This document shows, piece by piece, positions 722 to 36,121 of a stretch of DNA of 42,858 bases; the stretch's first letter is position 1; each line of letters starts with the position of its first letter. The notes beneath the pieces are model-generated. The model was given only the letters and a program-made list of their open reading frames with translations. It was not told the DNA's origin and ran no database searches. The position numbers were made by a program, and so were the translations under genes. The stretch comes from Escherichia phage Halfdan: the sequence record NC_072811.1; one strand, given 5' to 3'.

Positions 722-3186
722 TATAGTTTCTCCAACGTCGAATTAAGGCCCAAGAATTGTACGCCTTGGGGGTCGGTAACGGTAGCCCGGAAACCAAGTT
801 TAATATTCGCATCGCCGGTTAACACGAATTGCCCTTGTTGGTATTCGGTGTTATCGAAATGCGCCACTTGCGCCGACGCATTCAAAGTCGGCAATACGCC
901 CGGAATGTTTGGCGAACGAAGCCAGCCAACCGAACCGGATACACGAAGGGTTGCGGGCGGTGCCTGATACGTCGCATCTTTAGACCAGTATTCGCACTGG
1001 CCGAAAGGTGCCGGAACCATCATATCGAACACTTCCCAACCAAGCGACGCCGCCAGTTGTTGCGAATCGACAACCGCTTTGTACGGCGTAACCCAAACCC
1101 CGTTAATCAAATCGCCTTCGTACTTGCTAAAACCGGTTTGCTTGACGATAGTAGCGGGCGGGCGACCGGTTGCCGCAACACTTGCCGGAACGCCGACCAT
1201 ACCCGCGTCGGATACGAACGCCGCGAAGTAAACGCCGTCTTGAATTTCGCGTTGAACGCGCAACGTCGTTTGCGGAAGCGGAATCGTCGCAACGATAACA
1301 CCTTGTTCGTAATCTTCAATCGACTTTGCCCACACAATGACCGTCGAAGCCGCCAGCGAACCCGGAAGCGGGGCCGACCAAGCAAGGTCGCCGTACAGGC
1401 TATCGACAACGTTAAAGGTCAGCGATTGGACGGCTTCCGGGTATTCAGACCCAAGGCCGACAACGACAACCGTATTCGAAGGCGTAGTCGTAGAACGCTT
1501 TTCGTAACTGTTCACGGTTCGGATATAGCCGATATACGTGTCGCCAGCGCCAAGCGGCGGCGTTGTATACGTTATCGTCGTGCGACCCGACATAAAGATA
1601 TAGTCGGAATCGACAGGCGTAAACGGATACTTGCCGTAAGCCAGTTCGTAACCAACGACGTAAATATCGGCGGATTGCGGCCAGTCAAAGCGAACGCGGG
1701 GTTTGTTGGTGCCCGGTTCGACAGCGGTAACGCCCGAAGTCGCGTACAGAACCGACAACGGCTTCGGTTGGGTAACATCTGGTACGATGATTTGACCGCC
1801 GCCGTCAATCGGCTTTAAGTCCATATCGTCGGAATAAATGTCGTCGCTGTATTCAACTAGCGTTAGTTCGATGCCGCCGGGGTCGGTATTGGTCGGCGGC
1901 GTCATTTTCCAATCGGTAATTTGAAACAGCTTCGAAATCCAACCAAGTTGGGGCAAGTTCAGCGGTACAACGTCCCAAACTTCGTAATTAAATACCGTCC
2001 ATTTGCACGGAAGGGTAATCGTCTTTTCCAGCCGCGCACGGCGTAAGAAAATGGTTGCCAGTCGTTGCGCCGTAATCGGCGAAGTCGTGAAGTTCAACAC
2101 AATATCTTTGAATTGCTGAATACCGCCGTCTTGTGCGATATATTCAGCGCCGGATACTGGCGGGAAGTCGTTAAATACCCAACCGTTCGTAGAATCAAGG
2201 AAAGTACCCTTGACGCTGTTAAACGATTGGTCGGTCGGCGTGCGCGGTTGAAGCGACGGATTATCCCGCAAGTCTTCGGCCGTAATCTGGCGCGAAACGG
2301 CGGTACGGGCCGCACCGACAAACAGGCGGTAGACGCCTTCCGTCCATACGACAGTACCGGCACAAGCCGAAAGCATTTGCGAAATTGTGTCGCCGTTCTT
2401 GGTCGAAAGTTCGACAACACCGTCGATTGTATATCGGCCGTCGCAAAGACTGGCGGCCATGCTTGCCGGGATTTGGTCGGAAATGTCGGCGGCGGCTTTA
2501 ACGGTTTCCCAATCCATTTCGGCGGAAGTTGCGCCCAAGCCGTCTACCGAAGTCATAAAGTCGGCGGTGCAAAGCGCACCGTTGTTCGTCCACTTGGTCA
2601 AGCCGTCGCGGGGGTCGTATACCGGTTTACCCTTAACGTCGAATTGCACGTTAGGGCGGCCGTTCTTCCAAGCGGTTTTGTCGTATTTCAGCTTAACGAC
2701 CGCATACGCGCAACCGGTCAAAATGCAATCGGCGGTGTATTCGCTGAAAGTCGCGTGCAACTGCGGGTCAACGGCGGTTTGCGAACCGTCGTAATACCAC
2801 CATTCATACCAGCCCGCCGCAACATCCGGCCCGGCTTCGCCGTCGAAATAGATTTGCGTAACTTCTTGGATTCGGTGCGCCGCAATTACAACGACCATCC
2901 AAAGATATTCGTAACCGTCGCCGGATACGTTGGCGTAACTAACGACGCCAGAAATCCGCGCTTTCCCATAGACCATACGGCGCGGGGCGTCGGCCTGAAA
3001 GGTAAGCGATAACGGGTTCGTCTGGTACGTCGTACCAACCGGGTTCGGTGACGATTGAACCCCGGACATATTGCGCGACATTGCCAGCGTTAAGCCGACG
3101 GCGACAATCGTACCGATAACAAGCGCGGTCGTCGTACCGACCACGGCCGCAACGGCGATTGCAATTACGGGAAGTACGGCGGGCAT
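721..3186 (-). CDS. large tail-tip / host-specificity-like protein
   Basis: about 821 aa from ATG 3184-3186 (track ORF extends to a TTG at 3201); hydrophobic N-terminus; assignment by size and synteny only. Confidence 0.45.
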   Translation of the reverse strand: MPAVLPVIAIAVAAVVGTTTALVIGTIVAVGLTLAMSRNMSGVQSSPNPVGTTYQTNPLSLTFQADAPRRMVYGKARISGVVSYANVSGDGYEYLWMVVVIAAHRIQEVTQIYFDGEAGPDVAAGWYEWWYYDGSQTAVDPQLHATFSEYTADCILTGCAYAVVKLKYDKTAWKNGRPNVQFDVKGKPVYDPRDGLTKWTNNGALCTADFMTSVDGLGATSAEMDWETVKAAADISDQIPASMAASLCDGRYTIDGVVELSTKNGDTISQMLSACAGTVVWTEGVYRLFVGAARTAVSRQITAEDLRDNPSLQPRTPTDQSFNSVKGTFLDSTNGWVFNDFPPVSGAEYIAQDGGIQQFKDIVLNFTTSPITAQRLATIFLRRARLEKTITLPCKWTVFNYEVWDVVPLNLPQLGWISKLFQITDWKMTPPTNTDPGGIELTLVEYSDDIYSDDMDLKPIDGGGQIIVPDVTQPKPLSVLYATSGVTAVEPGTNKPRVRFDWPQSADIYVVGYELAYGKYPFTPVDSDYIFMSGRTTITYTTPPLGAGDTYIGYIRTVNSYEKRSTTTPSNTVVVVGLGSEYPEAVQSLTFNVVDSLYGDLAWSAPLPGSLAASTVIVWAKSIEDYEQGVIVATIPLPQTTLRVQREIQDGVYFAAFVSDAGMVGVPASVAATGRPPATIVKQTGFSKYEGDLINGVWVTPYKAVVDSQQLAASLGWEVFDMMVPAPFGQCEYWSKDATYQAPPATLRVSGSVGWLRSPNIPGVLPTLNASAQVAHFDNTEYQQGQFVLTGDANIKLGFRATVTDPQGVQFLGLNSTLEKL

Positions 3187-3623: not shown

Positions 3624-4159
3624 TATGAACCCCAACGTACTTTTAATGTGGGCATCGAAGCGATGAACTTAAACCCTTTATCGTTCGGGTATTTCGCTTG
3701 CTGGTCTTCGTTAGTATACCGGGAATTAACCGAACGTGCCCAATTAATCAAGCGTGACGACGCGGAAGCCGCAACCGAAACAACTTGGCCTAAGTCAACG
3801 GTTAACGAATCAATTGTTCCGTTGAACCACGTAATCAAACCGGTTACAAGCTGGTTGTTTTTATCGACAAGCGCAATCGAAACCTTAATCGGTTTATTAC
3901 GCGTGTTTTCGTTAACAACGTCACCGGTCATAGTTGACGGAATATTAGTTAGGGTCAACTTTAACGCCGTAGCGGTTACACCGTTGGTCGTGGTGTAATC
4001 GCCGATTCGCCCAAGCGAACCGACGCCGTAATAAAGTTTTCCGCCGACAGTAATATTCCGGTCGGAAGTGTTCGCCAAGAACGGGCCACTTTCGAAACTG
4101 ATTTCTACAAAGTAAACCGGACGAACGACCTTTTCGTCGAACTGCGGGAAGTTACGCAT
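3623..4159 (-). CDS. tail protein, paralogue of the C-terminal domain of the 915-aa tail protein
   Basis: 178 aa; shares RPV(F/Y)FV and RYT(N/D)E.QQ...P.D(K/R)GFKFIA...K(V/L)(R/K)WG blocks with residues ~725-915 of ORF 4152..6899. Confidence 0.5.
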   Translation of the reverse strand: MRNFPQFDEKVVRPVYFVEISFESGPFLANTSDRNITVGGKLYYGVGSLGRIGDYTTTNGVTATALKLTLTNIPSTMTGDVVNENTRNKPIKVSIALVDKNNQLVTGLITWFNGTIDSLTVDLGQVVSVAASASSRLINWARSVNSRYTNEDQQAKYPNDKGFKFIASMPTLKVRWGS

Positions 4160-6899
4160 TTTGGTCGCCCCATTTTAGTTTGGTCGATTGCAAATCGGCG
4201 ATGAACTTAAATCCACGGTCGCCTGGGTGCAATAGTTGTTGGTATTCGTCGGTATAGCGGGCGGTTGAAGCCTTGTGCCAATCCGAAAGCGAAGACCGAA
4301 CGTTTAACTTAATCGTCGCGGTGTTACCGGTAAATTGAACGTTATTGTCGAGAATAGCGCCCGACCCGATAAGTCGCGGATTGCTGATTAGGATATTCGA
4401 AGGGTCAACCAAACCCAAGAACATTTTAACGCCCTTCGCCCGGATATGTTCGGTAACGTAATCGACCATATTAAGCGGAATGCCCGCAAGGCCCATTGAC
4501 CAACCAGCGTCGGAAGCGGCCAAGCCTTCCGTTACCGCTTCAATCTTGCCGAACTGGCCGGTCGCGAACCACGTTTTACCGTCATAGTCGATATTCTTGT
4601 CGGAACTGTTCATAAACGAATCGTCGCCAACTTGAACAAAGAACACCGGCCGAATAATACGGTCTTCAATTTCCGCGCCAAGTTGTCGGCGTGGCGGCAC
4701 GTATGGTTGAATCGCCGGGTCGGTTCCGTACAACGTATCGTCGTATGTAATACCGTCGCGGATAACTTGCGGGTATGCCCACACATAGATATTAGGGATT
4801 TCGTTCAAAATGGCTTCACGCGTCGCGATATTCACGTTAGGCCAAACCCAAGTTTCGCGGGCCGTGTTCACGAAGCCGACGAAGTAATGCACGACGGCCA
4901 ACGGATATTGCAAACGCACCGTCGCCGCTTCAAGGGTCAACGGCAACAAGTCAAGGTCGCCGTTAATAATCCAATCGTAATCCTCAATCTGTACGAAATC
5001 GTAATTCGGATAAATCCATTCCGATTCGGGGAAATTGATAATCGGCAACATTTCCGAAGCCGGGTTCATAATCTGCGGTGTAAAGAACAGCAGCGTACCC
5101 AACGAATCAGGATAAGCGGCCTTTACCGCATCCCGAATATAGTTGGTCGATTGGCCCAACTTCACGCCCAACCATTCCAAGTACGGGCGTTGGTCGTCGG
5201 TAATCGGCTGTTTATAGTTGGTGTAATACGGCGTCGGTACAGCGTGCCCGGTTTCGGTCGTATAAAGCCCCTTCGTGTATTCGTCGTAAATACACGGCGC
5301 ACCGTTCGTATAAGAACCGTCCCACCACCACGGTTCGCCAATCTGGAACATTAGCGTACTAATGCCGGATTCTTGAAGAAGTTTCATACCGTGTTTAATC
5401 GTCCGGGCTAGGTAATCCATCGCCGGAATAAACGTCGGAATCAGGAACGACGAAGGCGGCGACCAGCCCGAAAGCGCCGGGCTTCCGTAAGCGTCGCGTT
5501 GCTTCCATTCGTCCGGGCAATACGTGTTAAGGATTTCGTAAGACGTAGACCAAATAAACGTATAGCCGTAGGCTTGCATTTGGGTGAAGAAGTTACGGCA
5601 CCAAACTTCCGTAGGATAGTTCAGCGGTTCGGCCGCATCCTTTACCACTTGGTTAACGAATGTCGTACTTCCCCCGGTCGAATACGCCTTGAAATAGTGC
5701 GACATACCCATATACAGGTTGAAATGCCCCCGGTATCCAAGGTTGTACGTGTTATCAACTTGTCGCCACGGCGTAATATTGTATGTATCGTCGAAACCCG
5801 AAGTCATTTGCATATTATGCACGGCTTGCGGATAGAAACGACGACCGATAATGCGTCGCGCACCAGTTACCGAAATGTTCATCATTTCGAAGTTAAGCGA
5901 TTCGTTACCGATAGCCGTGTCGAGTTGAAGCGTAACGGCGTTCGCCGGGCCGCCGATAATCGCAACGTCTTTAAGCGGCCCGTTTTCGGCTTTTACATAT
6001 AGCGAAGTTCCCCGCATGTACCAGTTATTAACCTGAATCAAGAACGTTTGCAGGTTTTGAGTATAGATAGCGATAGGGTCGCCGCCGCCTTTACCGCCGT
6101 TCTTCTTACCGGTATTGACCGTTTTAACGTACTTGTCCGGTTGGACAATCGTAAATTGCAGAATGTCACCCTTCTTTAACCGCAAGTTAGGGTTAACGTT
6201 CATTACTTCCCAATAATCAAGCGTACCCGTACCCTTTACGCCGACGTATCGGGAACCGTAGTAACCAATTTCACCAATGCTTCGGATACGCGCATTCGGC
6301 CCAAGGCCATACGACCCCGGAGTAATGGCGAAGAAGAAGTTAATAATATAACGCGGGTCGATAACGTCGCCGTCGAAGTTGAACCCGGTTTTCATGTTGT
6401 CGAAATCAAGAATATAGATTTCGTAACCATCGGGAACGGTCGGCGTACCTTCGGGGAAGATATCAGAAATCGCGTAAATCAGGCCCGGCCCCGGCCCGGT
6501 AATTTCGATCGCACCGGGATTCGGAACCAGCGACTCGCCTTGTATCTTATACGGAAACATTCGGTAAACCTGATTACCGGAGTTCGACAGAACAGTTACC
6601 GTAAATTTGTACGGATAAAGCGGGTTCGCAACGAACCCAACTTTAACGCCGGAATAATCGCGGTCTTCGACGTACTGCAACAGGGGGTGCCCCATATCGT
6701 CGTGCGAAGTCCAAAGCAAGCCGACCAAATCGCGGTTAGAACGAAACTCACAATTTACGGTCAGCTTGTCGGGCGTATCGGCGATAATGGTTGCAATCGC
6801 CGACAACGGAAAGTCAAGGTGAAAATACCGGCCGTCGAAACGCGTAAGCGTCGAATTGGCGGCCGGTAGGGTTTCGCAGTATGCGCTATCGAATGCCAT
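4152..6899 (-). CDS. large tail protein (baseplate-hub-like, tail-tip complex)
   Basis: 915 aa; ATG 6897-6899 abuts stop of upstream gene; downstream of tape measure and distal tail genes; function inferred from synteny. Confidence 0.5.
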   Translation of the reverse strand: MAFDSAYCETLPAANSTLTRFDGRYFHLDFPLSAIATIIADTPDKLTVNCEFRSNRDLVGLLWTSHDDMGHPLLQYVEDRDYSGVKVGFVANPLYPYKFTVTVLSNSGNQVYRMFPYKIQGESLVPNPGAIEITGPGPGLIYAISDIFPEGTPTVPDGYEIYILDFDNMKTGFNFDGDVIDPRYIINFFFAITPGSYGLGPNARIRSIGEIGYYGSRYVGVKGTGTLDYWEVMNVNPNLRLKKGDILQFTIVQPDKYVKTVNTGKKNGGKGGGDPIAIYTQNLQTFLIQVNNWYMRGTSLYVKAENGPLKDVAIIGGPANAVTLQLDTAIGNESLNFEMMNISVTGARRIIGRRFYPQAVHNMQMTSGFDDTYNITPWRQVDNTYNLGYRGHFNLYMGMSHYFKAYSTGGSTTFVNQVVKDAAEPLNYPTEVWCRNFFTQMQAYGYTFIWSTSYEILNTYCPDEWKQRDAYGSPALSGWSPPSSFLIPTFIPAMDYLARTIKHGMKLLQESGISTLMFQIGEPWWWDGSYTNGAPCIYDEYTKGLYTTETGHAVPTPYYTNYKQPITDDQRPYLEWLGVKLGQSTNYIRDAVKAAYPDSLGTLLFFTPQIMNPASEMLPIINFPESEWIYPNYDFVQIEDYDWIINGDLDLLPLTLEAATVRLQYPLAVVHYFVGFVNTARETWVWPNVNIATREAILNEIPNIYVWAYPQVIRDGITYDDTLYGTDPAIQPYVPPRRQLGAEIEDRIIRPVFFVQVGDDSFMNSSDKNIDYDGKTWFATGQFGKIEAVTEGLAASDAGWSMGLAGIPLNMVDYVTEHIRAKGVKMFLGLVDPSNILISNPRLIGSGAILDNNVQFTGNTATIKLNVRSSLSDWHKASTARYTDEYQQLLHPGDRGFKFIADLQSTKLKWGDQNA

Positions 6900-7514
6900 T
6901 TAGCTTTGTCCGTACAATGCTTCGGTGAATTCAAGCGAAGCGGAATGCAACATTCCGTCGATACTCACTTCGCCGCCCCCGGTAAGTTGACACGATACAA
7001 CCGGCGCAATCGACGAAATCGCGGTTCCGTTTACTGGCGGGTTGCGCAATGGCGGAAGAATCGGAATGTTCGCGTTCCCGCTGGCATCCGACGAAACAGC
7101 CGCCGTAACAATATGCATTCGATACATGCCGTCGGAACACAAGTAAGAAATTTGGTCGCCGACTTCAAGAATCGCAATGCTTGGCGTCCAACCAGCGGAA
7201 GCCAGAACGGCCCCCGCTTGGTTTGCGCCGTTAACCGTCGGCGTGCCCGGTTCGGTACTGCGACGCGGGATATACGACAGGTCGTAAATGTGGGCAACTT
7301 CCGCCCCGCCCCGCAACATCGCTTTAATTGCTTTCAGTTGTCGGCCATACTTGGCGGATAGGCTGTCGTATCCGAACGTAAGTTTCCAGCGTGCGCCCGG
7401 AAGTTCGACAACCTGAATGCCGCCAGTGAAAGGCGACGCCGCGATGCCCACATTATTAAGAATGTCGGCTTTTGCCGTATCCGGCGCGAATAGCGTAGTC
7501 CGTAAATCAATCAT
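6900..7514 (-). CDS. putative distal tail protein
   Basis: 204 aa; ATG 7512-7514 directly follows tape measure stop; position typical of a Dit-like protein. Confidence 0.4.
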   Translation of the reverse strand: MIDLRTTLFAPDTAKADILNNVGIAASPFTGGIQVVELPGARWKLTFGYDSLSAKYGRQLKAIKAMLRGGAEVAHIYDLSYIPRRSTEPGTPTVNGANQAGAVLASAGWTPSIAILEVGDQISYLCSDGMYRMHIVTAAVSSDASGNANIPILPPLRNPPVNGTAISSIAPVVSCQLTGGGEVSIDGMLHSASLEFTEALYGQS

Positions 7515-10973: not shown

Positions 10974-11411
10974 TTATTTCAGTTTTAGTTTATACCGCTG
11001 AACAGCCTTGCGAACCTTGGCTAAACAGCGTTCTACAAATCCGGCCGATTGTTGGGCCGAATAACCGTCGTTCAATCGCTTGATATACGGTTGATTGTTC
11101 GTTATATAAATCTTTTGTCCGGGCTTCTTATTAGCCAATACGGCTTTTGCTTGCGCGATTGTTTCGGCGGCCGATGCGTTGCGCGTCGAACCCTTTTCGC
11201 CGGGATAATGCGCCTTGCCCACATTAGAAGACGGCGCGTCTAAGGTGACTTCCCAAGACGACAGTGCCTTCGACGTATCAACGGGCGTCGTATATGCCAG
11301 TTCAGCGACGGCGGTAACAGCAACAAAAACGGCCGCTTCGCTGGCGGCCGTCTCAATTTCGGCCTTTTTCTTTTCTAGCCGATTGGCTAAGTCTAAAAGA
11401 TTACCGGCCAT
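10974..11411 (-). CDS. hypothetical tail-associated protein
   Basis: 145-aa ORF, ATG 11409-11411, between chaperone and tape measure genes. Confidence 0.4.
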   Translation of the reverse strand: MAGNLLDLANRLEKKKAEIETAASEAAVFVAVTAVAELAYTTPVDTSKALSSWEVTLDAPSSNVGKAHYPGEKGSTRNASAAETIAQAKAVLANKKPGQKIYITNNQPYIKRLNDGYSAQQSAGFVERCLAKVRKAVQRYKLKLK

Positions 11412-12271: not shown

Positions 12272-13801
12272 TTACTGCGGCATTGCCTTGTTTGGCAAGT
12301 ATTCGAAGAATTCAACCAACAGCGTATGGCCGAATTTCGATTCTGCGCCGTTGGTATCCAACGGAACAGTAATCGGGTTGTCTTTTTCGACGTTGATACG
12401 ACCGCCGCCAAGCGACAACAGCGGGATATCGTAAATCATGCCGCGATTGTTTGCCGCAAGAATCGCGTAGATACCAACGTCGGCGTTATTGCGTACCGCT
12501 TGGGTTGCCGCAACAGTGGTAAAGTAAGCGGTAACAGACCCGCCGACTTCGAAGTCGCCCGCCGAAGTATCGAACGCACCCAATACCCCGACCGCTTTGT
12601 TCGGCGTGATATTGTTGTTCACTTCGATAGAACCTTCGGAAATGTAGCCGAACAGCGGGGTCGGATTCGGGTTCGCCGAATTGTTGACCGACATACGGAT
12701 ACGGTAAACGTCGGACGAAGTGTTATACGCCGATTGACCAAGCGCCGAAACACGCGTACCCGCCTTGACGCCAACCGCACCGGTACGCTGTTCGTTGTCG
12801 CACGCTACAAAGGTAACGTCGGCGTTCAGCTTGTCGGCTTGCGGAATGTTCAAGGTGAATTCGTTTGCAACGGCACCGACAAGGTATTCGGATTGCATAC
12901 CGTCGGCGTCTTGGCCTAGCGTGCGTTCCAGTTGGTACGAACGGCGCTTAATCAGGTTGGCCGACTTTTCGTTACGAATGACGGTGCCGAAGTATACTTG
13001 CAGCGTGATACCGGTTCCGGCTTCGGTTACAGGCGTCCAAGTGGCGTTGTCGAGCGTAACGGTTTTGCTGTCGGTCGAAATGGCCGCAACGCGGGCGTAA
13101 CCAACGTTGTTGGCAAACGAAGTGCCAGCGCCATCGCCGCCGATGAACACCCATTGACCCGGAATCAGGCCAAAGGCGAACGAACCGGCCGTCGCGGTCA
13201 GGGTCAGCAGACCGGCCGCATAGGTCAACGCAACGTCGCCCGATGCGAATTCGTGACCGACGCGGGTAAGTGCGCCGTTCGGTGCCGCGCCTTCGTCGGA
13301 CAACGCGCCCCATACGGTAACGGCGGTTGCGATTGCGTCGCTAACCTTTTTCATGCCGTTGTTTGTGGGCACCGCGAAACCGCTTGCGACAACCAAGTCG
13401 CCAGCCGCGAAGATACCCAATCCCGAAGCGGCGGTGTACTTGATTTCGTCGCCGTCTACGCCGGTCATCGAAACTTTAGCCGCATTCAACGGCGCGGTTT
13501 GCGGTTGCTGGCGGGCATCGGCAAAGCAAAAGCCTTGCATAAGCCGGGTAATGTTGTCGGCCGTTACGTCGGTGTTGAAACCGCCCGAAGCGTCCAAGTC
13601 GGTAACGGTGCCTTTCTTCCGCTGGCGCGAAGGGTCAATCGGGGCGCGTGCCACGGTCGTAACTTCGCCGCCGAAGTCCGAATAGCTGTTCGGTTCCAGC
13701 CCGTACCAAATGGGCGTAGCCGGAAGCTGTTTCAAGCATTCTTCTTCGGCGAACGAAAGGCCCGAAATATTGCTGTCGATTTTGTTAACGTCGCAGACCA
13801 T
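12272..13801 (-). CDS. major tail protein (tube; sheath not excluded)
   Basis: 509 aa; ATG 13799-13801 with AAGGA SD; lies between connector genes and chaperones. Confidence 0.45.
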   Translation of the reverse strand: MVCDVNKIDSNISGLSFAEEECLKQLPATPIWYGLEPNSYSDFGGEVTTVARAPIDPSRQRKKGTVTDLDASGGFNTDVTADNITRLMQGFCFADARQQPQTAPLNAAKVSMTGVDGDEIKYTAASGLGIFAAGDLVVASGFAVPTNNGMKKVSDAIATAVTVWGALSDEGAAPNGALTRVGHEFASGDVALTYAAGLLTLTATAGSFAFGLIPGQWVFIGGDGAGTSFANNVGYARVAAISTDSKTVTLDNATWTPVTEAGTGITLQVYFGTVIRNEKSANLIKRRSYQLERTLGQDADGMQSEYLVGAVANEFTLNIPQADKLNADVTFVACDNEQRTGAVGVKAGTRVSALGQSAYNTSSDVYRIRMSVNNSANPNPTPLFGYISEGSIEVNNNITPNKAVGVLGAFDTSAGDFEVGGSVTAYFTTVAATQAVRNNADVGIYAILAANNRGMIYDIPLLSLGGGRINVEKDNPITVPLDTNGAESKFGHTLLVEFFEYLPNKAMPQ

Positions 13802-15669: not shown

Positions 15670-15730
15670 CGCATAGATTCCTTGTCAATTGCCCGATGCC
15701 CACAATAAGCCGTCGGCATCGGGCACGGCC

Positions 15731-16228: not shown

Positions 16229-16291
16229 TGCCGTAATTCCCGTCGGTTAGTTGCGAAAACGGGGGCCGAAGCCCCCGCCCCGTCGCGGCCC

Positions 16292-17260: not shown

Positions 17261-17275
17261 GATATAGCGTCCTTA

Positions 17276-17977: not shown

Positions 17978-17993
17978 TTCGGTTTACCTTTCG

Positions 17994-19096: not shown

Positions 19097-20644
19097 TTAA
19101 CCCCCGTTGCCCACATTAGACGGCTGCGGATTGCTGGCGGCCGGGTCTTCACCCATAGCCTTTGCAGTGGCCGCGATTTGGTCGGCTTGTTCTTGGTCGA
19201 TTTTCTTTTTCGCTTCGGCATCGTCTTCGGTAGCGACGCCACCTTTACGAAGTACGGCCCGCATTTCGGCGAAGGTAAGTGCGCCGCCTTGCCATTCCTT
19301 GATAGTTTCGGCGCGGTCTGCGGCCGAAAGTTTCATCAAGTCGAAGTCGGTGTTAAGTTGATATACGATTTTGGATTCGTCCAAACCCATATAGAACGCG
19401 CACCAGCCGAAGGCCCATTCGAACGCGGCCGATACGTTCTTCGCAGTTGCGGCCAAGAACGACGATTCGGCGGCTTCGTCTTGTTGCGCTTCGGTTGCGG
19501 TACGTTGTACCGACTTTTGTTCGACCAGCTTTGCGCCCAATGCGACCATTTGGTTTTCTTTGTGGCCCATTGCTTCGAACGGCATGGTATTCGGCTGCAT
19601 TTGCAGCAAGCCGCCTTGCGCATTCGGCGGAAGTGCGACGCCGCCCCACGAACCCAACTTGATTTGGCCGCCAAGAACGTTTTTCATCCATTCTTCGGTA
19701 AGACCGCTGAACCAGTAAGTCGGCTGGCCCATGACGTAACACGCTTCTTCGTAATCGGCCGAATTGCGGTAATGCGCTAAGTTCAGTTCGCAAAGGTCAA
19801 TGAACGGCGGGTTATCGACCGACGTATCGTTGTTTTCCGAACCGACGAACATAAACGGGATTTCTTGGATGTTCGAACCGTCCGGGCCGGTTGGATAAAA
19901 CGGGCCTTCTTTCAGTTCGAACGATTTGTTCTTCGGGATGTTATCGCCGTTCCAAACCGTCGGCGACTTTTCCCGGTAGATTTCGACTTTGTATTTCGTT
20001 TCGCCGACAACGTTACCGTTTTCGTCGGCTTCGTATTCCAGCGACATAACGCGGAATTGGCAACCGTGTTTGATTTCGAAGCCGTCGTCGTAGAACGGCC
20101 AAGATTCGGCGATTACGACCAGCGACAGCAGGGTTTTAGCGCCAACCTGAATTGTACGCCAGTTGACAACGGTATTCGGGTCGCAAACGGTAATCGTCGG
20201 GCGAAGGTGCCCGGCGTCTAGTTCTTTCTTGGTTGCGCCTTCTTCGCCGGTATTCGGATAATCGACGTAAATACCGCCACGCGCATAACCAAGTGCGTAA
20301 TTCAACAGGCGTTTAGCTTGTTGTGCGGCCGATACGCCGGTTCCGGTTGCGTCGATTTCGACGATATCCAGCGCGTCGGGAATTTCCGACACGGGGTCGC
20401 GGGCGAACACTTGGCCCGACAGACCGGCCAGCGTTCGGCGTGCGACGTTGTAGAACACGGCGCGGCCTTTATAGCCCTTGTAACGGGCGATGTTTTCCGG
20501 CGACTTATCGGCTTCGTTCGGCATCGGCAAATAGACAACACCGGCCGCCTTTACTTTGTCCGAACCGGACAAACAATCCCGAATCTTTTTGTACAGCGGC
20601 ATTACTGCGGCAAGTTCCGGGCGAATAAACGATACGTTTGGCAT
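19097..20644 (-). CDS. portal protein
   Basis: 515-aa ORF immediately downstream of large terminase. Confidence 0.65.
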   Translation of the reverse strand: MPNVSFIRPELAAVMPLYKKIRDCLSGSDKVKAAGVVYLPMPNEADKSPENIARYKGYKGRAVFYNVARRTLAGLSGQVFARDPVSEIPDALDIVEIDATGTGVSAAQQAKRLLNYALGYARGGIYVDYPNTGEEGATKKELDAGHLRPTITVCDPNTVVNWRTIQVGAKTLLSLVVIAESWPFYDDGFEIKHGCQFRVMSLEYEADENGNVVGETKYKVEIYREKSPTVWNGDNIPKNKSFELKEGPFYPTGPDGSNIQEIPFMFVGSENNDTSVDNPPFIDLCELNLAHYRNSADYEEACYVMGQPTYWFSGLTEEWMKNVLGGQIKLGSWGGVALPPNAQGGLLQMQPNTMPFEAMGHKENQMVALGAKLVEQKSVQRTATEAQQDEAAESSFLAATAKNVSAAFEWAFGWCAFYMGLDESKIVYQLNTDFDLMKLSAADRAETIKEWQGGALTFAEMRAVLRKGGVATEDDAEAKKKIDQEQADQIAATAKAMGEDPAASNPQPSNVGNGG

Positions 20645-20656
20645 TTGAAGCCCCTT

Positions 20657-22276
20657 TTATGATGGTCGAACAAGTTTAATTGCGGTTGCGGCCCGGTTGT
20701 TGCCAGCAAGGACGCGGTAACGTACTTCGTCGTAAACGTGGTCTTCGGAATCCGTATCCACGTCGTCGAGTATTTTAGAGTCGCGGGGCAATGTGGGCAA
20801 TATCGAAATAGCGGCCCGGCAACAGTCCATAATATACAACCCTTTGTGTTCACCGGTCGAAGTTGCTTCTAACCGTTCGCGCACAAGTTCAAGGCCGATT
20901 TTACGACTACCCGGCGATTTATCCGATTCAGTCCAGCGGATACCGACCGACGACATTTTCTTTTCGATGGTTTCCGTTTCATCGTCCGTAACGTTTCGAA
21001 TCTGGTTATCCGCTGGCCCCGGCCACGGTTGCGACTGAATCCAGCCGTTAGTCATTAATGCGATTTCAATATCGCGGATACCTTCCGCCACTTTACGCGA
21101 CGACATTTTAAGACCCTTGTTCGTTCCGATTTCCTTTGTACCGTACCATTCGAATATGCGAACAAGCGAACCAGCGGGCGGGCAAAACTTCTTCGTCGTT
21201 CCGTCGGGAAATACGATAGTCGCTTCTTCGCCGTTAGCTTCGGCCCACCAGCCAACCGAAAACGGATGCGACGAACCCCAGTCGAAAGACCGGTCGATTC
21301 GCCAACTTTTCGGAACAACGAACCGGGGAACGATAACGGTTTGTTTATTCCAAACGTCGTCGAGTGCGCCGCCTGCGACGATATCCCAATCGCCAAGCAA
21401 CCACGCTTTACGGCGGTTTTCGTCTTTTTCGCTATTCAGTTCGGCAACGTATTCGGGAGAAAGATAAATGTTTTCGACATACGAACCGAAGATAGCGACT
21501 TGCGTTTTCGTAACGGTAATTTCTTTCTTGGTCTTCGGGTCGAATACTTCGACGCTGTTTTCGACCATAGTTCCGTAAGGTGCCGGGTCGATAAACCGAC
21601 GCTTAACCCAATTATGGCCCGCGCCGTATGGGTTGCAAGTGCTGAACACTTCCAACGGAATCGGCGGGATTTCGTAAACCGGGCCTTCTTCAACGAAGAT
21701 AATTTCGCCTGTCGCTTCGTAATGGTCGCCGTCAATACACGGTGAATCTTTTTCAGGCGTAAACGAACTACGGTTCGTTGACATCATCATATTGTAAAGT
21801 TCGCCGGTTGGATATTTCGTTAATTCGTTCCAACCGATAAACGGGAATTCTTGGCCGTGATAGTTCCAATAATCGTCGGGATTCTTTGCGACGCGAAACA
21901 ACAGTTCTTCGCCGGTCGGCCAAACCCATTTAAGCGACGAAGCCGATTCAAGAAACTTTGCGCCGTCTTTGAATGCGTAAAACCAACGTTTCGACTTGTT
22001 GATTAAGTCGTCAAGGTTCTTATATTCGCGGTCGAATATGACGCCACGCCAGAACACGCCATAGCCCAAACCGACGCGACGACGAAATCGCATTAGCTGG
22101 GTATCGGTCTTTCCGGGGCCGCGTGCGCCAGTGTATAGGGTATGATGTGCCCGCGTATCTAACGCCAGTTCTTGCGACGTATCCGGTATCGGTTGCCAAA
22201 TTACGTTGGCGTTTTCCGGCGTCCAAATGATGCGTTCGGGCGAATCCGGGTTAGTGTTTGGTAGTATTAGCGACAT
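20657..22276 (-). CDS. terL: terminase large subunit
   Basis: 539 aa; Walker-A-like GARGPGKT near N-terminus; C-terminal nuclease-sized domain. Confidence 0.85.
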   Translation of the reverse strand: MSLILPNTNPDSPERIIWTPENANVIWQPIPDTSQELALDTRAHHTLYTGARGPGKTDTQLMRFRRRVGLGYGVFWRGVIFDREYKNLDDLINKSKRWFYAFKDGAKFLESASSLKWVWPTGEELLFRVAKNPDDYWNYHGQEFPFIGWNELTKYPTGELYNMMMSTNRSSFTPEKDSPCIDGDHYEATGEIIFVEEGPVYEIPPIPLEVFSTCNPYGAGHNWVKRRFIDPAPYGTMVENSVEVFDPKTKKEITVTKTQVAIFGSYVENIYLSPEYVAELNSEKDENRRKAWLLGDWDIVAGGALDDVWNKQTVIVPRFVVPKSWRIDRSFDWGSSHPFSVGWWAEANGEEATIVFPDGTTKKFCPPAGSLVRIFEWYGTKEIGTNKGLKMSSRKVAEGIRDIEIALMTNGWIQSQPWPGPADNQIRNVTDDETETIEKKMSSVGIRWTESDKSPGSRKIGLELVRERLEATSTGEHKGLYIMDCCRAAISILPTLPRDSKILDDVDTDSEDHVYDEVRYRVLAGNNRAATAIKLVRPS

Positions 22277-23019: not shown

Positions 23020-23227
23020 CGTTAGCCCCTTTAACTGATTCAGTTACTTGTTCGACCGTCGCTTTCGCTTCGGCTACCGCTTCGGCGGCTTTGTCTTCGG
23101 CGTGTTTCGTTTCCGCTTCCGACTTACCGGCTTTCTTACCGCCAAAGTACAGACCAAGCGCACCAGCAATCGCGCCAATGATGCCCACAATCCAAGGCCC
23201 GAAGTCGCCTAACAGTGCTGTAATCAT
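22943..23227 (-). CDS. i-spanin
   Basis: 94 aa; N-terminal TM helix then charged helical region; directly downstream of endolysin. Confidence 0.55.
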   Translation of the reverse strand: MITALLGDFGPWIVGIIGAIAGALGLYFGGKKAGKSEAETKHAEDKAAEAVAEAKATVEQVTESVKGANDVQADINRLNPGDAANKLRDEWSRD

Positions 23228-25555: not shown

Positions 25556-25568
25556 TGTGGGCACTCCT

Positions 25569-26139: not shown

Positions 26140-26597
26140 TCTTCGCCCCTTGTTACGATAAGTTTAACGCCCGCTTCTTTGAACATCGAAACGGCAATAT
26201 CTAAGTGTTCGTCGTATGCAAGCCGGTTGCCCACATATTCAGCGACGACGCGTTTAACGCCGCTTTGAATGATGGCCCCGGCGCAAACCGGGCACGGCGT
26301 CAACGGCGTTACGAACAGCGTACAACCGACAAGCGATTCGCGGCTGTTTAGTATAGCGTTCAATTCGGCGTGTACGGTGCGCGGGTACTTCTGCGCCCGG
26401 TCGTTCAACCGGGATTCAGTATCGGCCACGCCACGCGGAAAGCCGTTGTAACCGAACGATACCGGGCTGTTATCCGGCCGTGCAATGAACGCACCAACCT
26501 TCGTCGAAGGGTCTTTCGATTTGGTGCGAACAGTGCGGGCCAACGACAGGTAGAACCGTTCCCATTCGGTAAGGTCTTCGTACCGACGTTCAATCAT
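26136..26597 (-). CDS. dCMP deaminase (cytidine/deoxycytidylate deaminase family)
   Basis: 153 aa; zinc-binding HAE and PCxxC motifs (VHAELNAI, TPCPVCAGAI). Confidence 0.8.
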   Translation of the reverse strand: MIERRYEDLTEWERFYLSLARTVRTKSKDPSTKVGAFIARPDNSPVSFGYNGFPRGVADTESRLNDRAQKYPRTVHAELNAILNSRESLVGCTLFVTPLTPCPVCAGAIIQSGVKRVVAEYVGNRLAYDEHLDIAVSMFKEAGVKLIVTRGEE

Positions 26598-27001
26598 CGT
26601 TTCGACTCCTTTTCGTTGTCCAGATACAACAACGCTTCGTGTCGGTCAATCTTGCCGGTCGCGTCGCAGAAGTCGCAGTCGAACCAGTCGCCGGGGCTAA
26701 TTTCGACGCCCTGTACGCCTTTGCATTTCGGGCACGTTACGGCTTCGGCTTCGTGTGAGTAATCCGGCCCGTAAAAGTTCTTGATTACGTCGTCAGGGTT
26801 GCCGCCTGCGGCCATGTAACCGCGTGCGTATTGTGCGGCATCCGTAACCGGCATGTAACCGTCGCAGATTGCGCAAGTTACCTTTTGGCCTAACTGATAC
26901 GGCGGCGGGCCAACGTCGAACAGATGGCGCGGGCACGCGTCCAGCTTGCGGCGGTTTTCCTTGATAGCGGCGAACAGTGCGGCCGATTCTTGCTTGTTCA
27001 T
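26594..27001 (-). CDS. cysteine-rich zinc-ribbon protein
   Basis: 135 aa; three CxxC(x)G motifs (CAICDG, CPKCKG, CDFCDATG). Confidence 0.45.
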   Translation of the reverse strand: MNKQESAALFAAIKENRRKLDACPRHLFDVGPPPYQLGQKVTCAICDGYMPVTDAAQYARGYMAAGGNPDDVIKNFYGPDYSHEAEAVTCPKCKGVQGVEISPGDWFDCDFCDATGKIDRHEALLYLDNEKESKR

Positions 27002-30019: not shown

Positions 30020-30040
30020 AGCGGCCCCCTTATGCCCACA

Positions 30041-30241
30041 TTAGGCCGCGTTAAGTTTGGCGACAGCGGCGTCGATAGCGGCTTGCGTGTCGTCGGTCTT
30101 GATGATGCGGCACTTTTCGTCGGAATACGAATCGTCGCGTTCCTGTTCGACGCATTCGCGGTCGTAGTCGCCAAACTGAACCGACCAAACGCCGTCGGTC
30201 TTGGTCAACAAGCTGAAATACTGTTTCGCTTTCTTCGCCAT
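30041..30241 (-). CDS. hypothetical protein
   Basis: 66 aa from ATG 30239-30241 with GAAGGAG SD; track ORF extends to an ATG at 30322 that lacks an SD. Confidence 0.4.
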   Translation of the reverse strand: MAKKAKQYFSLLTKTDGVWSVQFGDYDRECVEQERDDSYSDEKCRIIKTDDTQAAIDAAVAKLNAA

Positions 30242-30623: not shown

Positions 30624-32930
30624 CTAGAAGCCGAACGCCCGTGGTGCCGAAATCATGTACGCAACGCCACGGAATCCGAACTTATCAATCAATTGACCTT
30701 TACCCAATTCCGCAATGTCGCCACGGTCGCAAAGCGTCTTCAAGGTGCGTCGGATAACGTCGGATGCCGTGATTCGTTCGCCTTTGAAAGCGGATAGGTT
30801 AGCCAATTTACGTTGAAGGTACGGATACGGAATAATGCGTTCGCCGTGCATCATTGCCGACCCGCCATACGACGCCACTTCCGACCAAGGCCGAACGACG
30901 TATTCGCGAATAACGCGTACCATTTCGTTAAGCTGTTTGGTTTCGTTGCTGTTCTGGCCGACTTCGCCGCTATTGAACCGACCTAACAGGTTGTTCGAAT
31001 CCGCTTCAACGATACGCAAGGCCCAAGCGGCGGCGCTGGCATCAATGGTCGGGTTATAGGGGTCACAACCGACGGCAACCAGCCCGGCTAGTTTCATGGC
31101 CTTAATGTGGGCACGGTTCCAAAGGTGGCGCGTGACTTCGCGGGATGCGTTGTTAATTCGCTTGTCGCATTCTTCGTTGAAAGCGTCGAACAGTTCTTTC
31201 GCTTCCGGCGATACGCGGATATGCACCGCTTTATGCGAGTTGTTCAGCATCAACGCTTGCGCGCACAATTGCGCCATACGTTCGACCAGTTCATTCGACG
31301 GCATTACGAACGCGTGGCCTTCGTTCATAGACGGCCGCTTTCCTCGGTATTCGATGATGGTAAAGCGCGGCAACAAACCTTCGCTAATCATCATTTCATC
31401 AAGGAATTCGTAAAAGCGTTCGGGCGTTGATTCGCCTAGCATCGTGTAAGACGGTGCCAGAACCGAAGCCGTATTCTTTTCTTTATCCGAATAGATGGTC
31501 GGACGCAAAACCGAACCTTCGCCGGACTTGTTGAACAGGTCAAGCAACAGGCGGCGCAAGCCGACAAGGTGCGTCGGTGCGCGGGGGTCGGTCATTTGCT
31601 GCAATGCGATACCGATTTCGCCGACGATGCTTACAAAGCTGGTCGGGCCTTTCGACATATATTTAACCAACGCTTGCGCCGATGCGATTTCAGCCGGGCC
31701 GATGAATTCGTTAGCCGCTGGCACGGTGCGTTGCACTTGGCCCATTAGCTTTTCAATGCCCTTTGCGATTGCTTCTTTACCGGTGCCGGTTGGGGCCAAC
31801 AACATAACGTATTGGTTCAATCCGGTATTCGACACGTTGTACGCACGCCCACATATACCAGCCATCAAGCCAATAGCGGCCGTAAGCGCGATTTCCGGTA
31901 CAGGCCGGGGCGCTTGCTGGTAAATGAATTGCGCGATTTCGCCCATAAGGCCGGGCGGCACGGTGTACGGCGTATCGCCTTGGGGTTCGGGGATATATTC
32001 GGCTGTCGGCACGCTGGCGGCTTCCTGTTGCACGGCGACGCGGCTTTGTTGCAATGCTTCGTTAAGCCGGTTCATAAGTGCGGCGGTATCGACTGGCGGC
32101 AACATGCGGTCGAAAGACTTGTTAATCATGTAGTCGATATAACCGACGCCACGAATCGACGTTTGTTTGTCGCGTGCGCCCAACGGCGACGCTTTGAACA
32201 TCCGGGTAAGCTGTTCGCGGTTTTGGGTATAAAACGCCAAAATGTTGATATACGCTAAGTCGGCTTCGGATTGCGACGGATACAGGCCGACCCAATCGCC
32301 GTTATGCAACGACATAAACTTCGCGCCGTTTTCCGCATTGCGTGCGATTTCGATAACTTCGTCGTCCGACTTGGTTTGCGGTTCGTTGCCGTCGTAATAT
32401 GTCTTTTCTTCTTTACCGCCCAACAGGGTATAAAGTTCGTTGACCATATCGTTACGGTCTTCGATAGCAGGGTTCGAACCGTTAAGGAAATTGCCCGTCA
32501 TGGTCATAAAGCGACCGGACGAATACAGTTCGATACGGTTACGCTTGCGACCGGCTGGCAACGCACCTTTTACGATGATATGCACGCCCTTACCGCTTGG
32601 CGAAAGTTCGGTATACGACCCTAGCCGTTGGTAAATCGTGATTTGGTCGGCGTACAATTTCGGGTCGCCGTCCGTATCGTCAAGGTCGATAAAGCAATAC
32701 GGGTCGTTTTGCGTTAACACGAAGCCCAAGCCGTTAAACCATCCGTCTTGGCACGCTTGCGCGGCTTGCTCAAACGTTCCGAATGTTGACGGTTCGTTGA
32801 CATTCGCCCGCGTTTGGAAATTATGCGGCGAATACGGTACTTTGGTCGGCTTATCGGCTTGCGTGTCTTCGTAACGCCAAACTACCCAATGCGGCGTATT
32901 CCGCAATTCTTCGGGTATGTTCTGGTACAT
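30624..32930 (-). CDS. DNA primase (prim-pol-type N-terminal domain) with C-terminal NTPase-like region
   Basis: 768 aa; PHWVVWRYE, FIDLDD, SPSGKGVHI, ELYSSGRFMTMTG motifs; P-loop-like APTGTGKE. Confidence 0.7.
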   Translation of the reverse strand: MYQNIPEELRNTPHWVVWRYEDTQADKPTKVPYSPHNFQTRANVNEPSTFGTFEQAAQACQDGWFNGLGFVLTQNDPYCFIDLDDTDGDPKLYADQITIYQRLGSYTELSPSGKGVHIIVKGALPAGRKRNRIELYSSGRFMTMTGNFLNGSNPAIEDRNDMVNELYTLLGGKEEKTYYDGNEPQTKSDDEVIEIARNAENGAKFMSLHNGDWVGLYPSQSEADLAYINILAFYTQNREQLTRMFKASPLGARDKQTSIRGVGYIDYMINKSFDRMLPPVDTAALMNRLNEALQQSRVAVQQEAASVPTAEYIPEPQGDTPYTVPPGLMGEIAQFIYQQAPRPVPEIALTAAIGLMAGICGRAYNVSNTGLNQYVMLLAPTGTGKEAIAKGIEKLMGQVQRTVPAANEFIGPAEIASAQALVKYMSKGPTSFVSIVGEIGIALQQMTDPRAPTHLVGLRRLLLDLFNKSGEGSVLRPTIYSDKEKNTASVLAPSYTMLGESTPERFYEFLDEMMISEGLLPRFTIIEYRGKRPSMNEGHAFVMPSNELVERMAQLCAQALMLNNSHKAVHIRVSPEAKELFDAFNEECDKRINNASREVTRHLWNRAHIKAMKLAGLVAVGCDPYNPTIDASAAAWALRIVEADSNNLLGRFNSGEVGQNSNETKQLNEMVRVIREYVVRPWSEVASYGGSAMMHGERIIPYPYLQRKLANLSAFKGERITASDVIRRTLKTLCDRGDIAELGKGQLIDKFGFRGVAYMISAPRAFGF

Positions 32931-33133
32931 TACTTAACCTTTGCTTTCAGATATGCGTAAAGGGTTTCGACGAAGACGACGCCGGGGTTATCCGACTGGC
33001 CTACCGCGAACGCACGAATCCAAGCGACCGACAGGCCGGTTTCGTCAGCAATGGTCTTGTATTCAAGGTTACGGGGGCGATTCAACAGAAGTTGCCGGGT
33101 TTCATCCCGCCAACCGGTGACAAGCTGGGTCAT
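32930..33133 (-). CDS. small helix-turn-helix DNA-binding protein
   Basis: 67 aa from ATG 33131-33133 (TAAGGA 9 nt upstream) or 70 aa from ATG 33140-33142; YKTIADETGLSVAWIRAF HTH-like segment; first gene of the leftward unit. Confidence 0.5.
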   Translation of the reverse strand: MTQLVTGWRDETRQLLLNRPRNLEYKTIADETGLSVAWIRAFAVGQSDNPGVVFVETLYAYLKAKVK

Positions 33134-33173
33134 TGTGGGCATTCCTTACGGTTGCGCGTGGTCATTGGCCGAA

Positions 33174-33202
33174 ATGATACGGCGAAAATCATGTAACGTA
33201 AA
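33174..33202 (-). promoter_or_regulatory. candidate leftward promoter for the HTH-primase unit
   Basis: minus-strand TTTACG, 17-nt spacer, TATCAT; back to back with the rightward promoter. Confidence 0.35.
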
Positions 33203-33214
33203 GCGAAAATTCTA

Positions 33215-33243
33215 TTGACGCCCGCAAGCCCCGGCGCTACTAT
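33215..33243 (+). promoter_or_regulatory. sigma70-like promoter for the rightward early unit
   Basis: TTGACG (33215-33220), 17-nt spacer, TACTAT (33238-33243); GGAG SD before mazG-like ATG at 33294. Confidence 0.5.
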
Positions 33244-33917: not shown

Positions 33918-33942
33918 CGCGCCGGTTCGATTGACGTATATT
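33914..33942 (+). promoter_or_regulatory. sigma70-like promoter upstream of gene 33995..34462
   Basis: TTGACG (33914-33919), 17-nt spacer, TATATT (33937-33942); overlaps the mazG-like stop codon; followed by leader hairpin 33953-33971. Confidence 0.5.
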
Positions 33943-33994
33943 TCTATTCAACGGGCCGAATTGGTCGGCCCGGTTTAACGAAAGGGTAATCGAA

Positions 33995-34462: not shown

Positions 34463-34514
34463 TCAACGACGCCCGGTTGCCCACATTAGGCCGCCGGGCT
34501 TTTCAGGTGAAACT

Positions 34515-35195: not shown

Positions 35196-35251
35196 ATAAC
35201 CGAATTCGACACGGTTTGATTGTCGGAACTTTTCGAAAAGGTAGAAACAAA

Positions 35252-36061: not shown

Positions 36062-36076
36062 GTCGCAATCAACGGT

Positions 36077-36104
36077 AAGGGGCTTCGGCCCCTTATCGTC
36101 TTTA
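36077..36104 (+). terminator. candidate terminator after gene 35252..36061
   Basis: stem AAGGGGC/GCCCCTT with TTCG tetraloop, then ATCGTCTTT. Confidence 0.45.
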
Positions 36105-36121
36105 CAGGGGAATAATGCCGT

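Follow-up and report, generated by a model that had tools for sequence, protein, structure and literature searches.

The genome of Escherichia phage Halfdan (42,858 bp; MH362766 in the original paper), which is the whole of the window analysed here, carries a short DNA word, the 8-mer TGTGGGCA in the writing of the '-' strand, in 20 copies where 0.43 are expected, and on each strand these copies are spaced more evenly than chance. The word recurs throughout a clade of related phages and is evenly spaced and strand-specific. The reading that we favour, at a probability of about 0.4, is that the copies are priming or loading sites of the primase-polymerase (prim-pol)-helicase encoded by the phage.

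The core of the word was determined from k-mer statistics, with expected 8-mer counts taken from an order-2 Markov model. The exact 17-mer TGCCCACATTAGGCCGC occurs twice, at 30033-30049 and 34478-34494, and matches to it with three mismatches or fewer number 5 against 0.08 expected, a count that 0 of 100 shuffles reached. On the '-' strand the consensus of the copies is TAWTGTGGGCA, which is found 11 times in the window with at most one mismatch, both strands included. The 8-mer core usually has (t)A-W in front, and a longer form, GCCGnC-TAATGTGGGCA, is often seen in Halfdan. The core is very sharp: all 20 copies read T-GTGG-GCA, single-base variants of TGTGGGCA are nearly absent from the window, GTGGGCA is preceded solely by T (no NGTGGGCA with another base was found there), and position 6 is solely G. 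In a logo built from 491 distinct contexts, the upstream side shows only t-A-W, alike on both strands, and a weak depletion of A at -9 to -5, indicating that the 17-mer is a lineage-specific extension of the shorter core (t)AW-TGTGGGCA. Literature searches on the word, on Lokivirus and Septimatrevirus and on primase-site layouts gave no earlier description of it. A DnaA box was considered, as TGTGG matches the reverse of TTATCCACA, and was dropped on our own sequence comparison because GCC stands in place of the essential TAT.

The '-' strand holds the early, lysis and structural genes together with the primase gene (71-33142), and the '+' strand holds the remaining replication genes (33294-42835). 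Evenness was tested by comparing the coefficient of variation (CV) of the gaps on the circular map with that of 1e5-2e5 random placements. The '-' series, with 12 copies, has gaps of 2,584-4,481 bp (CV 0.167, P < 5e-6), and evenness beyond chance is seen for the 8 copies of the '+' series too (P = 0.007); the spacing averages ~3.6 kb on the sense strand of the structural genes and ~5.4 kb on the opposite strand. The copies of both strands pooled are more even than random as well (P = 3e-4). When the strand labels were shuffled over the unchanged copy positions, the per-strand evenness was removed, with P = 1.3e-4 for Halfdan and 2e-5, 2e-4, 0.016 and 0.002 as the other values of this test. This result indicates that each strand has its own series, and hence that the function is strand-specific (single-strand or directional) and not orientation-blind duplex binding. 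The smallest gap on the same strand is 2,028 bp, and the nearest copies on opposite strands are 163 bp apart. An iteron origin was rejected on this ground, as the copies are not clustered within a few hundred bp and same-strand gaps are at least 2,028 bp.

The layout disregards gene boundaries and the direction of transcription. Fourteen of the 20 copies are intragenic and one more lies in the last portal codons, and the copies are divided equally between sense and antisense to local transcription (10 each). Two '+' copies exactly span the spacer between the Shine-Dalgarno (SD) sequence and the ATG of '-' strand genes, and three sense-strand intergenic copies are located 13-27 nt upstream of start codons (Table 1). 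The spacer layout AAGGAA-TGCCCACA-ATG indicates that the small helix-turn-helix (HTH) gene probably begins with the ATG at 33133 and not at the listed start, 33142.

Table 1. Copies of the word, stem-loops and the prim-pol-helicase gene in the Halfdan genome
Feature	Position	Strand	Context
Core copy	1327..1334	-	within tail-fibre gene, sense
Core copy	4776..4783	-	within tail gene, sense
Core copy	7445..7452	-	within distal-tail-protein gene, sense; position kept as far as Loki
Core copy	11216..11223	-	within tail-completion gene, sense
Core copy TTATTGTGGGCA	15697..15704	-	GGGCA half belongs to 3' arm of hairpin
Core copy GTC-TAATGTGGGCA	19108..19115	-	last portal codons; 13 nt upstream of head-morphogenesis ATG
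Core copy	23182..23189	-	within spanin gene, sense
Core copy	26228..26235	-	within dCMP deaminase gene, sense
Core copy	30033..30040	-	GCGGCC-TAATGTGGGCA; overlaps focal 17-mer; 13 nt upstream of ATG at 30019
Core copy	34478..34485	-	hairpin loop in replication module; antisense to local '+' genes
Core copy	38368..38375	-	within helicase gene, antisense
Core copy	40952..40959	-	within DNA polymerase gene, antisense
Core copy	3647..3654	+	tail gene, antisense; kept in Pavpe01 (28682) despite diverged flanks
Core copy	7289..7296	+	distal-tail gene, antisense; 163 nt from '-' copy; pair conserved in Loki
Core copy	13364..13371	+	major tail gene, antisense
Core copy	20792..20799	+	large terminase gene, antisense
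Core copy	25556..25563	+	whole SD-to-ATG spacer of '-' gene: AAGGAG-TGCCCACA-ATG
Core copy	31106..31113	+	primase gene, antisense
Core copy	33134..33141	+	SD-to-ATG spacer of small HTH gene
Core copy	42133..42140	+	within DNA polymerase gene, sense
Focal stem-loop	30021..30049	-	6-7 bp stem, 15-17 nt loop; DNA folding energy -8.0 vs background -6.4 +/- 2.6
Strong stem-loop	34471..34503	+	GCCCGG...CCGGGC then TTTT, terminator-like; z -4.5
Strong stem-loop	15691..15724	-	10-11 bp stem, z -4.8, no T-run; between genes 15731-16228 and 15208-15669
Prim-pol-helicase gene	30624..32930	-	768 aa; AEP prim-pol + NrS-1-type helix-bundle aa 4-274, DUF3987 aa 484-642

The word is shared by the relatives of Halfdan. 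The nearest records, Halfdan_Juelich_variant and phage Shy, are ~98% identical to it (8 kb compared), Pseudomonas phage Pavpe01 is ~76% identical over part of the 8 kb compared, and the remoter kin belong to the Septimatrevirus (phage 73), Lokivirus and Titanvirus groups. TGTGGGCA occurs 18 times in Pavpe01, 19 times in phage 73, 17 times in RcTitan (with 8 TGTGGGCT in addition) and 14 times in Samson, where 0.8 are expected. Loki, with 44% GC, has 13 copies together with TGTGGG[GT]A variants, and AATGTGGG is found there 20 times against 0.66 expected. The metagenomic set consisted of 80 IMG/VR loci of 33-56% GC with a primase N-terminal region 42-56% identical to that of Halfdan, and TGTGGGCA is the top or a near-top 8-mer in most of them. 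Copy positions are largely shared between Halfdan and Pavpe01, even where the flanks have diverged, and some are shared as far as Loki. In the conserved genes of the relatives, 123 copies are sense and 143 antisense, and 540 copies in relatives divide 328 to 212 between the strands. Evenness was significant for the '+' series of Pavpe01 (P < 5e-6) and RcTitan (P = 5e-6), for both series of Loki ('+' 3.5e-5, '-' 2e-4) and in phage 73 (0.003 and 0.015). Since the word does not change among phages whose hosts are E. coli, Pseudomonas, Acinetobacter, Rhodobacter, Xanthomonas and Sphingomonas, its reader must be encoded by the phages themselves.

Variant words are found at the edge of this group. 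Baskent_P4_1 (63% GC) has a similar replication-gene layout, a divergent primase (38.5% identity in the N-terminal region) and deazaguanine-synthesis genes; it is without TGTGGGCA and is enriched instead in TGTGGHCA (T 13, C 13, A 8, G 1), TGTGGTCA occurring 13 times against 1.3 expected, with a weakly even '+' series (P = 0.03). In addition, four IMG/VR loci of 34-39% GC are without TGTGGGCA, and their top 8-mers are TAGCCCCT, AGCCCCTA and CTACCCCT (approximately TAGGGGCTA). The TAGGGGCTA-like words may be a further variant of the core, with GGGC in common.

Stem-loops at some of the copies

An earlier inspection of this DNA, referred to here as the sequence-only reading, had described the 17-mer as displayed in the loops of GC-rich stem-loops at two intergenic sites, with a third copy inside an inverted repeat, and had proposed a structured DNA or RNA element rather than a linear site. 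The exact 17-mer at two sites and the three inverted repeats were all recovered: the focal hairpin has the stem GCGGCC/GGCCGC (30021-30026 and 30044-30049), the second GCCCGG/CCGGGC (34471-34476 and 34494-34499) with TTTT after it, and the third GCCCGATGCC/GGCATCGGGC (15691-15700 and 15715-15724). The third site keeps its inverted repeat, but its motif is not the same, 3 positions differing from the 17-mer. Display in the loop is correct only loosely, because the 17-mer runs into the 3' arm at 30021-30049 with its final 6 nt (GGCCGC), base pairing takes up the GGGCA/TGCCC half at 15691-15724, and the register differs at each site. The sequence-only reading also missed a closer copy at 19108-19124 (2 mismatches) and the 8-mer TGTGGGCA as the conserved unit.

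RNA folding of the three stem-loops, with z-scores of the minimum free energy (MFE) against 200 shuffles each, bore out the hairpins at 34471-34499 (z = -4.5) and 15691-15724 (z = -4.8), for which 0 of 200 shuffles were as good. The stability of the focal hairpin, on the other hand, was at the level of chance for '-' strand RNA (MFE -13.2 kcal/mol, z = -0.57, 43 of 200 shuffles equal to it), and z was -2.1 on the '+' strand. Its 3' arm overlaps the SD sequence AAGGGGG of the next gene. Halfdan (30027-30032) and the Juelich variant (33487-33493) differ by a one-base deletion in this loop/SD region (TAAGGGGG versus TAGGGGG), indicating that the loop of the focal hairpin is not tightly constrained.

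The stem-loop at 34471-34503 has the DUF7173 gene (33995-34462) on one side and the Sak4 gene (34516-35195) on the other. It has a loop of 17 nt, reduced to 7 nt when an inner 3-bp stem is counted, and it was missed by our simple terminator scan, which was defined by loops of 3-8 nt only; the overall count of terminators given by that scan in the window is at chance level. A same-strand copy is present at this junction in 18 of 20 distinct relatives. In phage 73, Pavpe01, Samson and several metagenomic phages, as in Halfdan itself, a GC stem that varies from phage to phage (GCCCGG, GGCCCCGG, GCCCCCGG, CTTCCGG, CCCCGG and GCCGCCTT) always has the motif in its loop. The differing stems are compensatory variation, and the pairing, whose loss in related genomes would have spoken against the sequence-only reading, is kept at this locus. 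The relatives do not keep the T-run that follows the hairpin in Halfdan. In RcTitan-like genomes the corresponding copy lies in the SD-to-ATG spacer of Sak4 and the nearby hairpins are without the motif, indicating that motif and hairpin are separable. Copies are also found in annotated terminators: in Samson, 8725-8760 (copy at 8741), which corresponds in position to Halfdan 15691-15724, and 32240-32272 hold one each, and in Loki the rho-independent terminator after the major tail gene (9527-9563) has a stem made of two inverted copies, TTGCCCACATT...AATGTGGGCAA.

Over the whole set of copies, the association with hairpins is absent or small. No association was found at the 20 copies in the window, where the mean DNA folding energy was -6.57 kcal/mol against a background of -6.36, and a search of the whole window with Rfam 15 gave 0 matches at the gathering score. 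Among the 540 copies in relatives, 9.8% lie in hairpins of -10 kcal/mol or lower against 5.4% of the background (Mann-Whitney U test, P = 7e-4), and this small excess stems from particular intergenic loci. The sequence-only observation is confirmed in part, and its structural reading has partial support at two loci only, those of the stable stem-loops, one of them conserved; hairpins are not a general feature of the motif. A structured element in place of a linear site is not supported by the copies themselves, most of which are intragenic, equally sense and antisense, and folded no better than background; intercistronic processing or attenuation cannot account for the antisense and intragenic copies, nor for the even per-strand spacing. 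The hairpins are a separate layer that houses a few copies. A general lesson is that conserved hairpins with a motif in the loop can reflect a DNA word lodged in the only non-coding space, and should not be taken as RNA elements by default.

The prim-pol-helicase as candidate reader

The protein that we propose as the reader matches the Pfam family of the NrS-1 helix-bundle domain, PF22763, with 30.1 bits (cut-off 27.9) and PF13148 with 51.7 bits, and its residues 10-274 match the NrS-1 primase chains 6a9w, 6k9a and 7rr3 with E ~1e-27 and 7ola with 1e-28. The DUF3987 domain is presumed to be the helicase part, following the annotations of relatives. The best recognition sites of the NrS-1 enzyme are 5'-GTGG-3' and 5'-GTGA-3', of which GTG is essential; the enzyme also reads an 8-nt site, TTTGGTTA, and synthesis begins with the template base immediately 5' of the site (PMC8718748). 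Likewise, the helix-bundle domain of pRN1 (ORF904) reads GTG (PMC8718748). The Halfdan word contains GTGG, and directly 5' of it is a T that could template a purine start, so that TAAT/GTGG/GCA fits the anatomy of the NrS-1 site. In the NrS-1 genome itself, the published site TTTGGTTA has a single occurrence, and a GTG-centred 9-10-mer, AAGTGTAAC, has 11 copies against 0.19 expected, all of them within 300 bp (17070-17369), in both orientations, immediately 3' of the prim-pol gene. This cluster looks like an iteron-type origin, and its repeat includes the GTG that the enzyme reads.

In the mechanism that we propose for Halfdan, the helix-bundle domain would bind GTGG(GCA) on the single-stranded template, and synthesis would start opposite the invariant T 5' of GTGG, initiating with A, so that the primer, 5'-A-W-T..., would be a copy of the A/T-rich flank. 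Each copy of the word would thus act as a built-in start or loading point of discontinuous-strand synthesis. Even spacing would result from selection that limits the longest gap, together with the decay of redundant close copies. Where a copy is required, it would be fitted into the available non-coding sequence, such as the loop or arm of a stem-loop, the spacer of a ribosome site or the last codons of a gene; in this account the word is lodged in non-coding space because the genes are tightly packed and a copy is needed at the given place. A further and more tentative step is to see in the genome a lagging-strand map, in which Okazaki-type fragments would start from ~20 fixed and evenly spaced sites, 12 and 8 per strand, and the word would be an obligatory start or loading signal, retained through selection even within genes, ribosome-site spacers and the loops of terminators.

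Several points weigh against this assignment. The link between motif and primase rests on homology and on the T/GTGG fit. The prim-pol and the motif occur together in most relatives of 42-56% identity, with the variant word in Baskent_P4_1; Listeria PSA and Staphylococcus phiSP15-1, which have homologous prim-pols, show no comparable 8-mer. The replication module (SF2 helicase, Cas4/RecB-like exonuclease, SSB, Sak4, MazG and the small HTH protein) is inherited en bloc, and NrS-1 has several of these genes too, so the primase cannot be told apart from its neighbours by phyletic patterns. The cognate word of NrS-1 forms an origin-like cluster and is not dispersed. If GTG alone sufficed, as for NrS-1 in vitro, a word of 8-11 nt would be superfluous, and a spacing of 3.6-5.4 kb seems long for Okazaki fragments. 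The variant patterns TGTGGGCW and TGTGGG[CGT]A used for phage 73, RcTitan and Loki were picked post hoc. Finally, given the covariation at the Sak4/DUF7173 junction, presentation in the loop may have a role of its own there.

Other readers of a strand-specific word have to be weighed against the prim-pol-helicase. One is a Chi-like marker of the phage itself, an 8-mer read directionally by the phage helicase and the Cas4/RecB-family exonuclease during end processing for Sak4/SSB recombination or replication, where the word would attenuate degradation of phage DNA or turn the enzyme to recombination on it, and word-free host DNA would be destroyed. The two genes (SF2 helicase and Cas4-domain exonuclease) lie side by side and are conserved in the clade, the word is 8 nt, G/T-rich and contains GTGG as does E. 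coli Chi, GCTGGTGG, and an even series of its own on each strand is expected for a translocating enzyme that enters either end of a permuted genome; that of Loki is headful-packaged and circularly permuted (PMC5313236). The extreme avoidance of GAG/CTC in the clade (described below) would also suit a phage nuclease of short specificity. Nevertheless, the A/T-rich 5' flank and the invariant T suit primer initiation better, and a phage-encoded helicase-nuclease with its own Chi is not known from this family. We consider this reading unlikely. The Chi of the host was ruled out, as phages of very different hosts all carry the word unchanged. We regard as quite unlikely that the copies are sites of a site-specific nickase giving single-strand interruptions in packaged DNA, as in T5 and in phiKMV-like and LUZ24/tf-like phages. 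The class of signal is comparable (a sharp 8-11-mer, 12-19 main-strand copies per ~43 kb, conserved positions), with 14 copies of TACT/RTGMC in tf (PMC3517423) and 13 of WACTRTGAC in Rembedalsseter (PMC11780129), the words are alike (TACT/GTGAC and TAAT GTGGGCA), and VRR-NUC and other nucleases are encoded. The nicked families, however, carry their motif on one strand at uneven density, whereas here it is on both strands and evenly spaced. Opposite-strand copies of Loki are ~18 bp apart (9535 and 9552), where paired nicks would mimic cohesive ends, and cohesive ends of Loki were excluded by heating/cooling and ligation tests (PMC5313236). Read pile-ups associated with nicks were seen in the LUZ24-like Ab22, and the same study reported none for the PA73-like Ab26 (PMC4482731), which is an argument from silence, and the LUZ24 primase (Toprim + DnaB) is unrelated to that of Halfdan; a shared primase as the cause of the likeness to the LUZ24/tf nick motif was dropped for the same reason.

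A protein that binds the word as duplex DNA, for regulation or genome organisation, could be the small HTH protein, the DUF3268 zinc-finger protein or a packaging/condensation factor. Conservation of the motif throughout the clade independently of the host, the conserved position of the small HTH gene (32930-33133) beside the primase gene and the evenness of the pooled sites are consistent with such a binder, but the word is asymmetric, without a dyad, evenness is far stronger per strand and is gone once strand labels are shuffled, and opposite-strand copies that are 163 bp apart, or overlap in Loki, would be redundant for an orientation-blind protein. We hold this reading to be very unlikely. 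Least probable, to a degree that we would hardly credit it, is a structured RNA or single-stranded DNA element presenting the motif in a stem-loop, as a site of processing or attenuation or as the target of a hairpin-recognising protein, or, as a variant of this reading, a phage-specific promoter. The former has in its favour the two strong hairpins and the compensatory changes around a motif-bearing loop at the Sak4/DUF7173 junction; it is opposed by the mostly intragenic and half antisense copies, by hairpins being no general feature, and by the details given above (focal hairpin at chance, varying register, uncoupling in RcTitan-like genomes, no Rfam match, T-run not conserved). For the latter, three sense intergenic copies lie upstream of start codons, and TAATGT, as read from the sequence, retains the A at -11 and the T at -7 of the sigma-70 -10 element; against it, the annotations of close relatives list no RNA polymerase gene, although none was searched for, and the motif is not part of the sigma-70-like promoters in the divergent region. 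A promoter with TAWTGT as -10 and GGGCA as discriminator was rejected because half of the copies are antisense and most are intragenic.

If the word is the start signal of the prim-pol, this would be the first case known to us of a long recognition sequence of a replicative primase laid out genome-wide at regular intervals. The fragment length of discontinuous-strand synthesis and the reading of DNA by the helix bundle would become testable in an easily grown E. coli phage, and co-evolution of site and enzyme would be testable with the variants TGTGGGCA, TGTGGHCA and possibly TAGGGGCTA. A nick or a phage Chi-like function would likewise be new for this widespread group, which comprises Septimatrevirus, Lokivirus, Titanvirus and many metagenomic relatives and includes phages studied for therapeutic use.

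Other skewed words and annotation in the clade

GAG/CTC is nearly absent from both strands regardless of transcription. Counted as GAG plus CTC on the '+' strand, with the expectation taken from base composition, it occurs 65 times in the window against ~1,425 expected (observed/expected 0.05), and the ratio is 0.10 in Pavpe01, 0.02 in phage 73, 0.01 in RcTitan and 0.36 in Loki; the avoidance is also found in ~20 IMG/VR loci, and the frequency is normal in Baskent_P4_1, PSA and LUZ24. The surviving trinucleotides are mostly in SD sequences (AAGGAGT) or in a GAGT/ACTC context. One possibility is evasion of a nuclease with a specificity of 3-4 nt, perhaps the phage's own. GTGG/CCAC outside the motif is also depleted (observed/expected 0.29 in Halfdan, 0.09 in phage 73 and 0.05 in RcTitan, against 1.1-1.2 in unrelated phages). 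This depletion follows GAG/CTC avoidance across loci (rho 0.81) and not motif density, and it is absent in several motif-rich loci; for this reason, it was not counted as support for the primase. Palindromes are avoided as well, with one GATC in Halfdan, none in phage 73, and zero CCGG, CGCG and GGCC in Loki.

A 793-aa open reading frame (15689-18070, '+') runs antisense over the scaffold and major-capsid genes. In the Juelich-variant record this wrong strand bears a 2,025-nt 'hypothetical protein' (2588-4612), and portal and large terminase are entered merely as misc_features. Skewed oligonucleotide usage has probably given rise to the long antisense frame. Back-to-back sigma-70-like promoters are found at 33174-33243 (TTGACG-17-TACTAT on '+', TTTACG-17-TATCAT on '-'), do not use the motif, and are plausible early promoters. 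The frame at 26594-27001 ('-') encodes a small cysteine-rich protein with a weak match to an Anti-TRAP/DnaJ-type zinc motif. Loki gp45, a DnaJ-type cysteine-rich protein, was reported to resemble the lambda antiterminator Q by HHsearch (PMC5313236), and the Halfdan product, its putative counterpart by position and motif only, could be relevant to late transcription.

Comparison with known systems

In phage P4 a primase-helicase, alpha, binds specific origin iterons. Such iteron origins, among them the putative NrS-1 cluster, are like the Halfdan word in that a word of 8-10 nt is tied to a primase-helicase, but they are clustered at one or two loci, whereas the Halfdan word is dispersed, with same-strand gaps of at least 2.0 kb. 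The DNA uptake sequence (DUS) of Neisseria and the uptake signal sequence (USS) of Haemophilus are genome-wide words that often lie in intergenic stem-loops, sometimes as inverted pairs as at Loki 9527-9563; the analogy concerns placement only, the phage having no uptake machinery. Chi (RecBCD/AddAB) and the KOPS of FtsK are also 8-nt, G-rich, strand-specific and over-represented, at one per few kb. Chi is specific to the host enzyme and even spacing is no hallmark of it, whereas the Halfdan word is the same across hosts. The nick motifs of T5, phiKMV and LUZ24/tf resemble it as short sharp words with a dozen or more copies per ~45 kb, conserved positions and a TA-n-T-GTG flavour. They lie on one strand, unevenly, in phages with unrelated primases, while the Halfdan word is even and on both strands, and no nick has been reported so far in its clade.

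The closest comparison is with the prim-pol sites of NrS-1 and pRN1. No genome-wide layout of this kind was found described for any prim-pol in the literature, and the Halfdan word differs in being 8-11 nt long and very sharp, with ~20 copies evenly spaced per strand. It is alike in that Halfdan encodes a homologue, the word contains GTGG, a T stands at the start position, and the reading is per strand.

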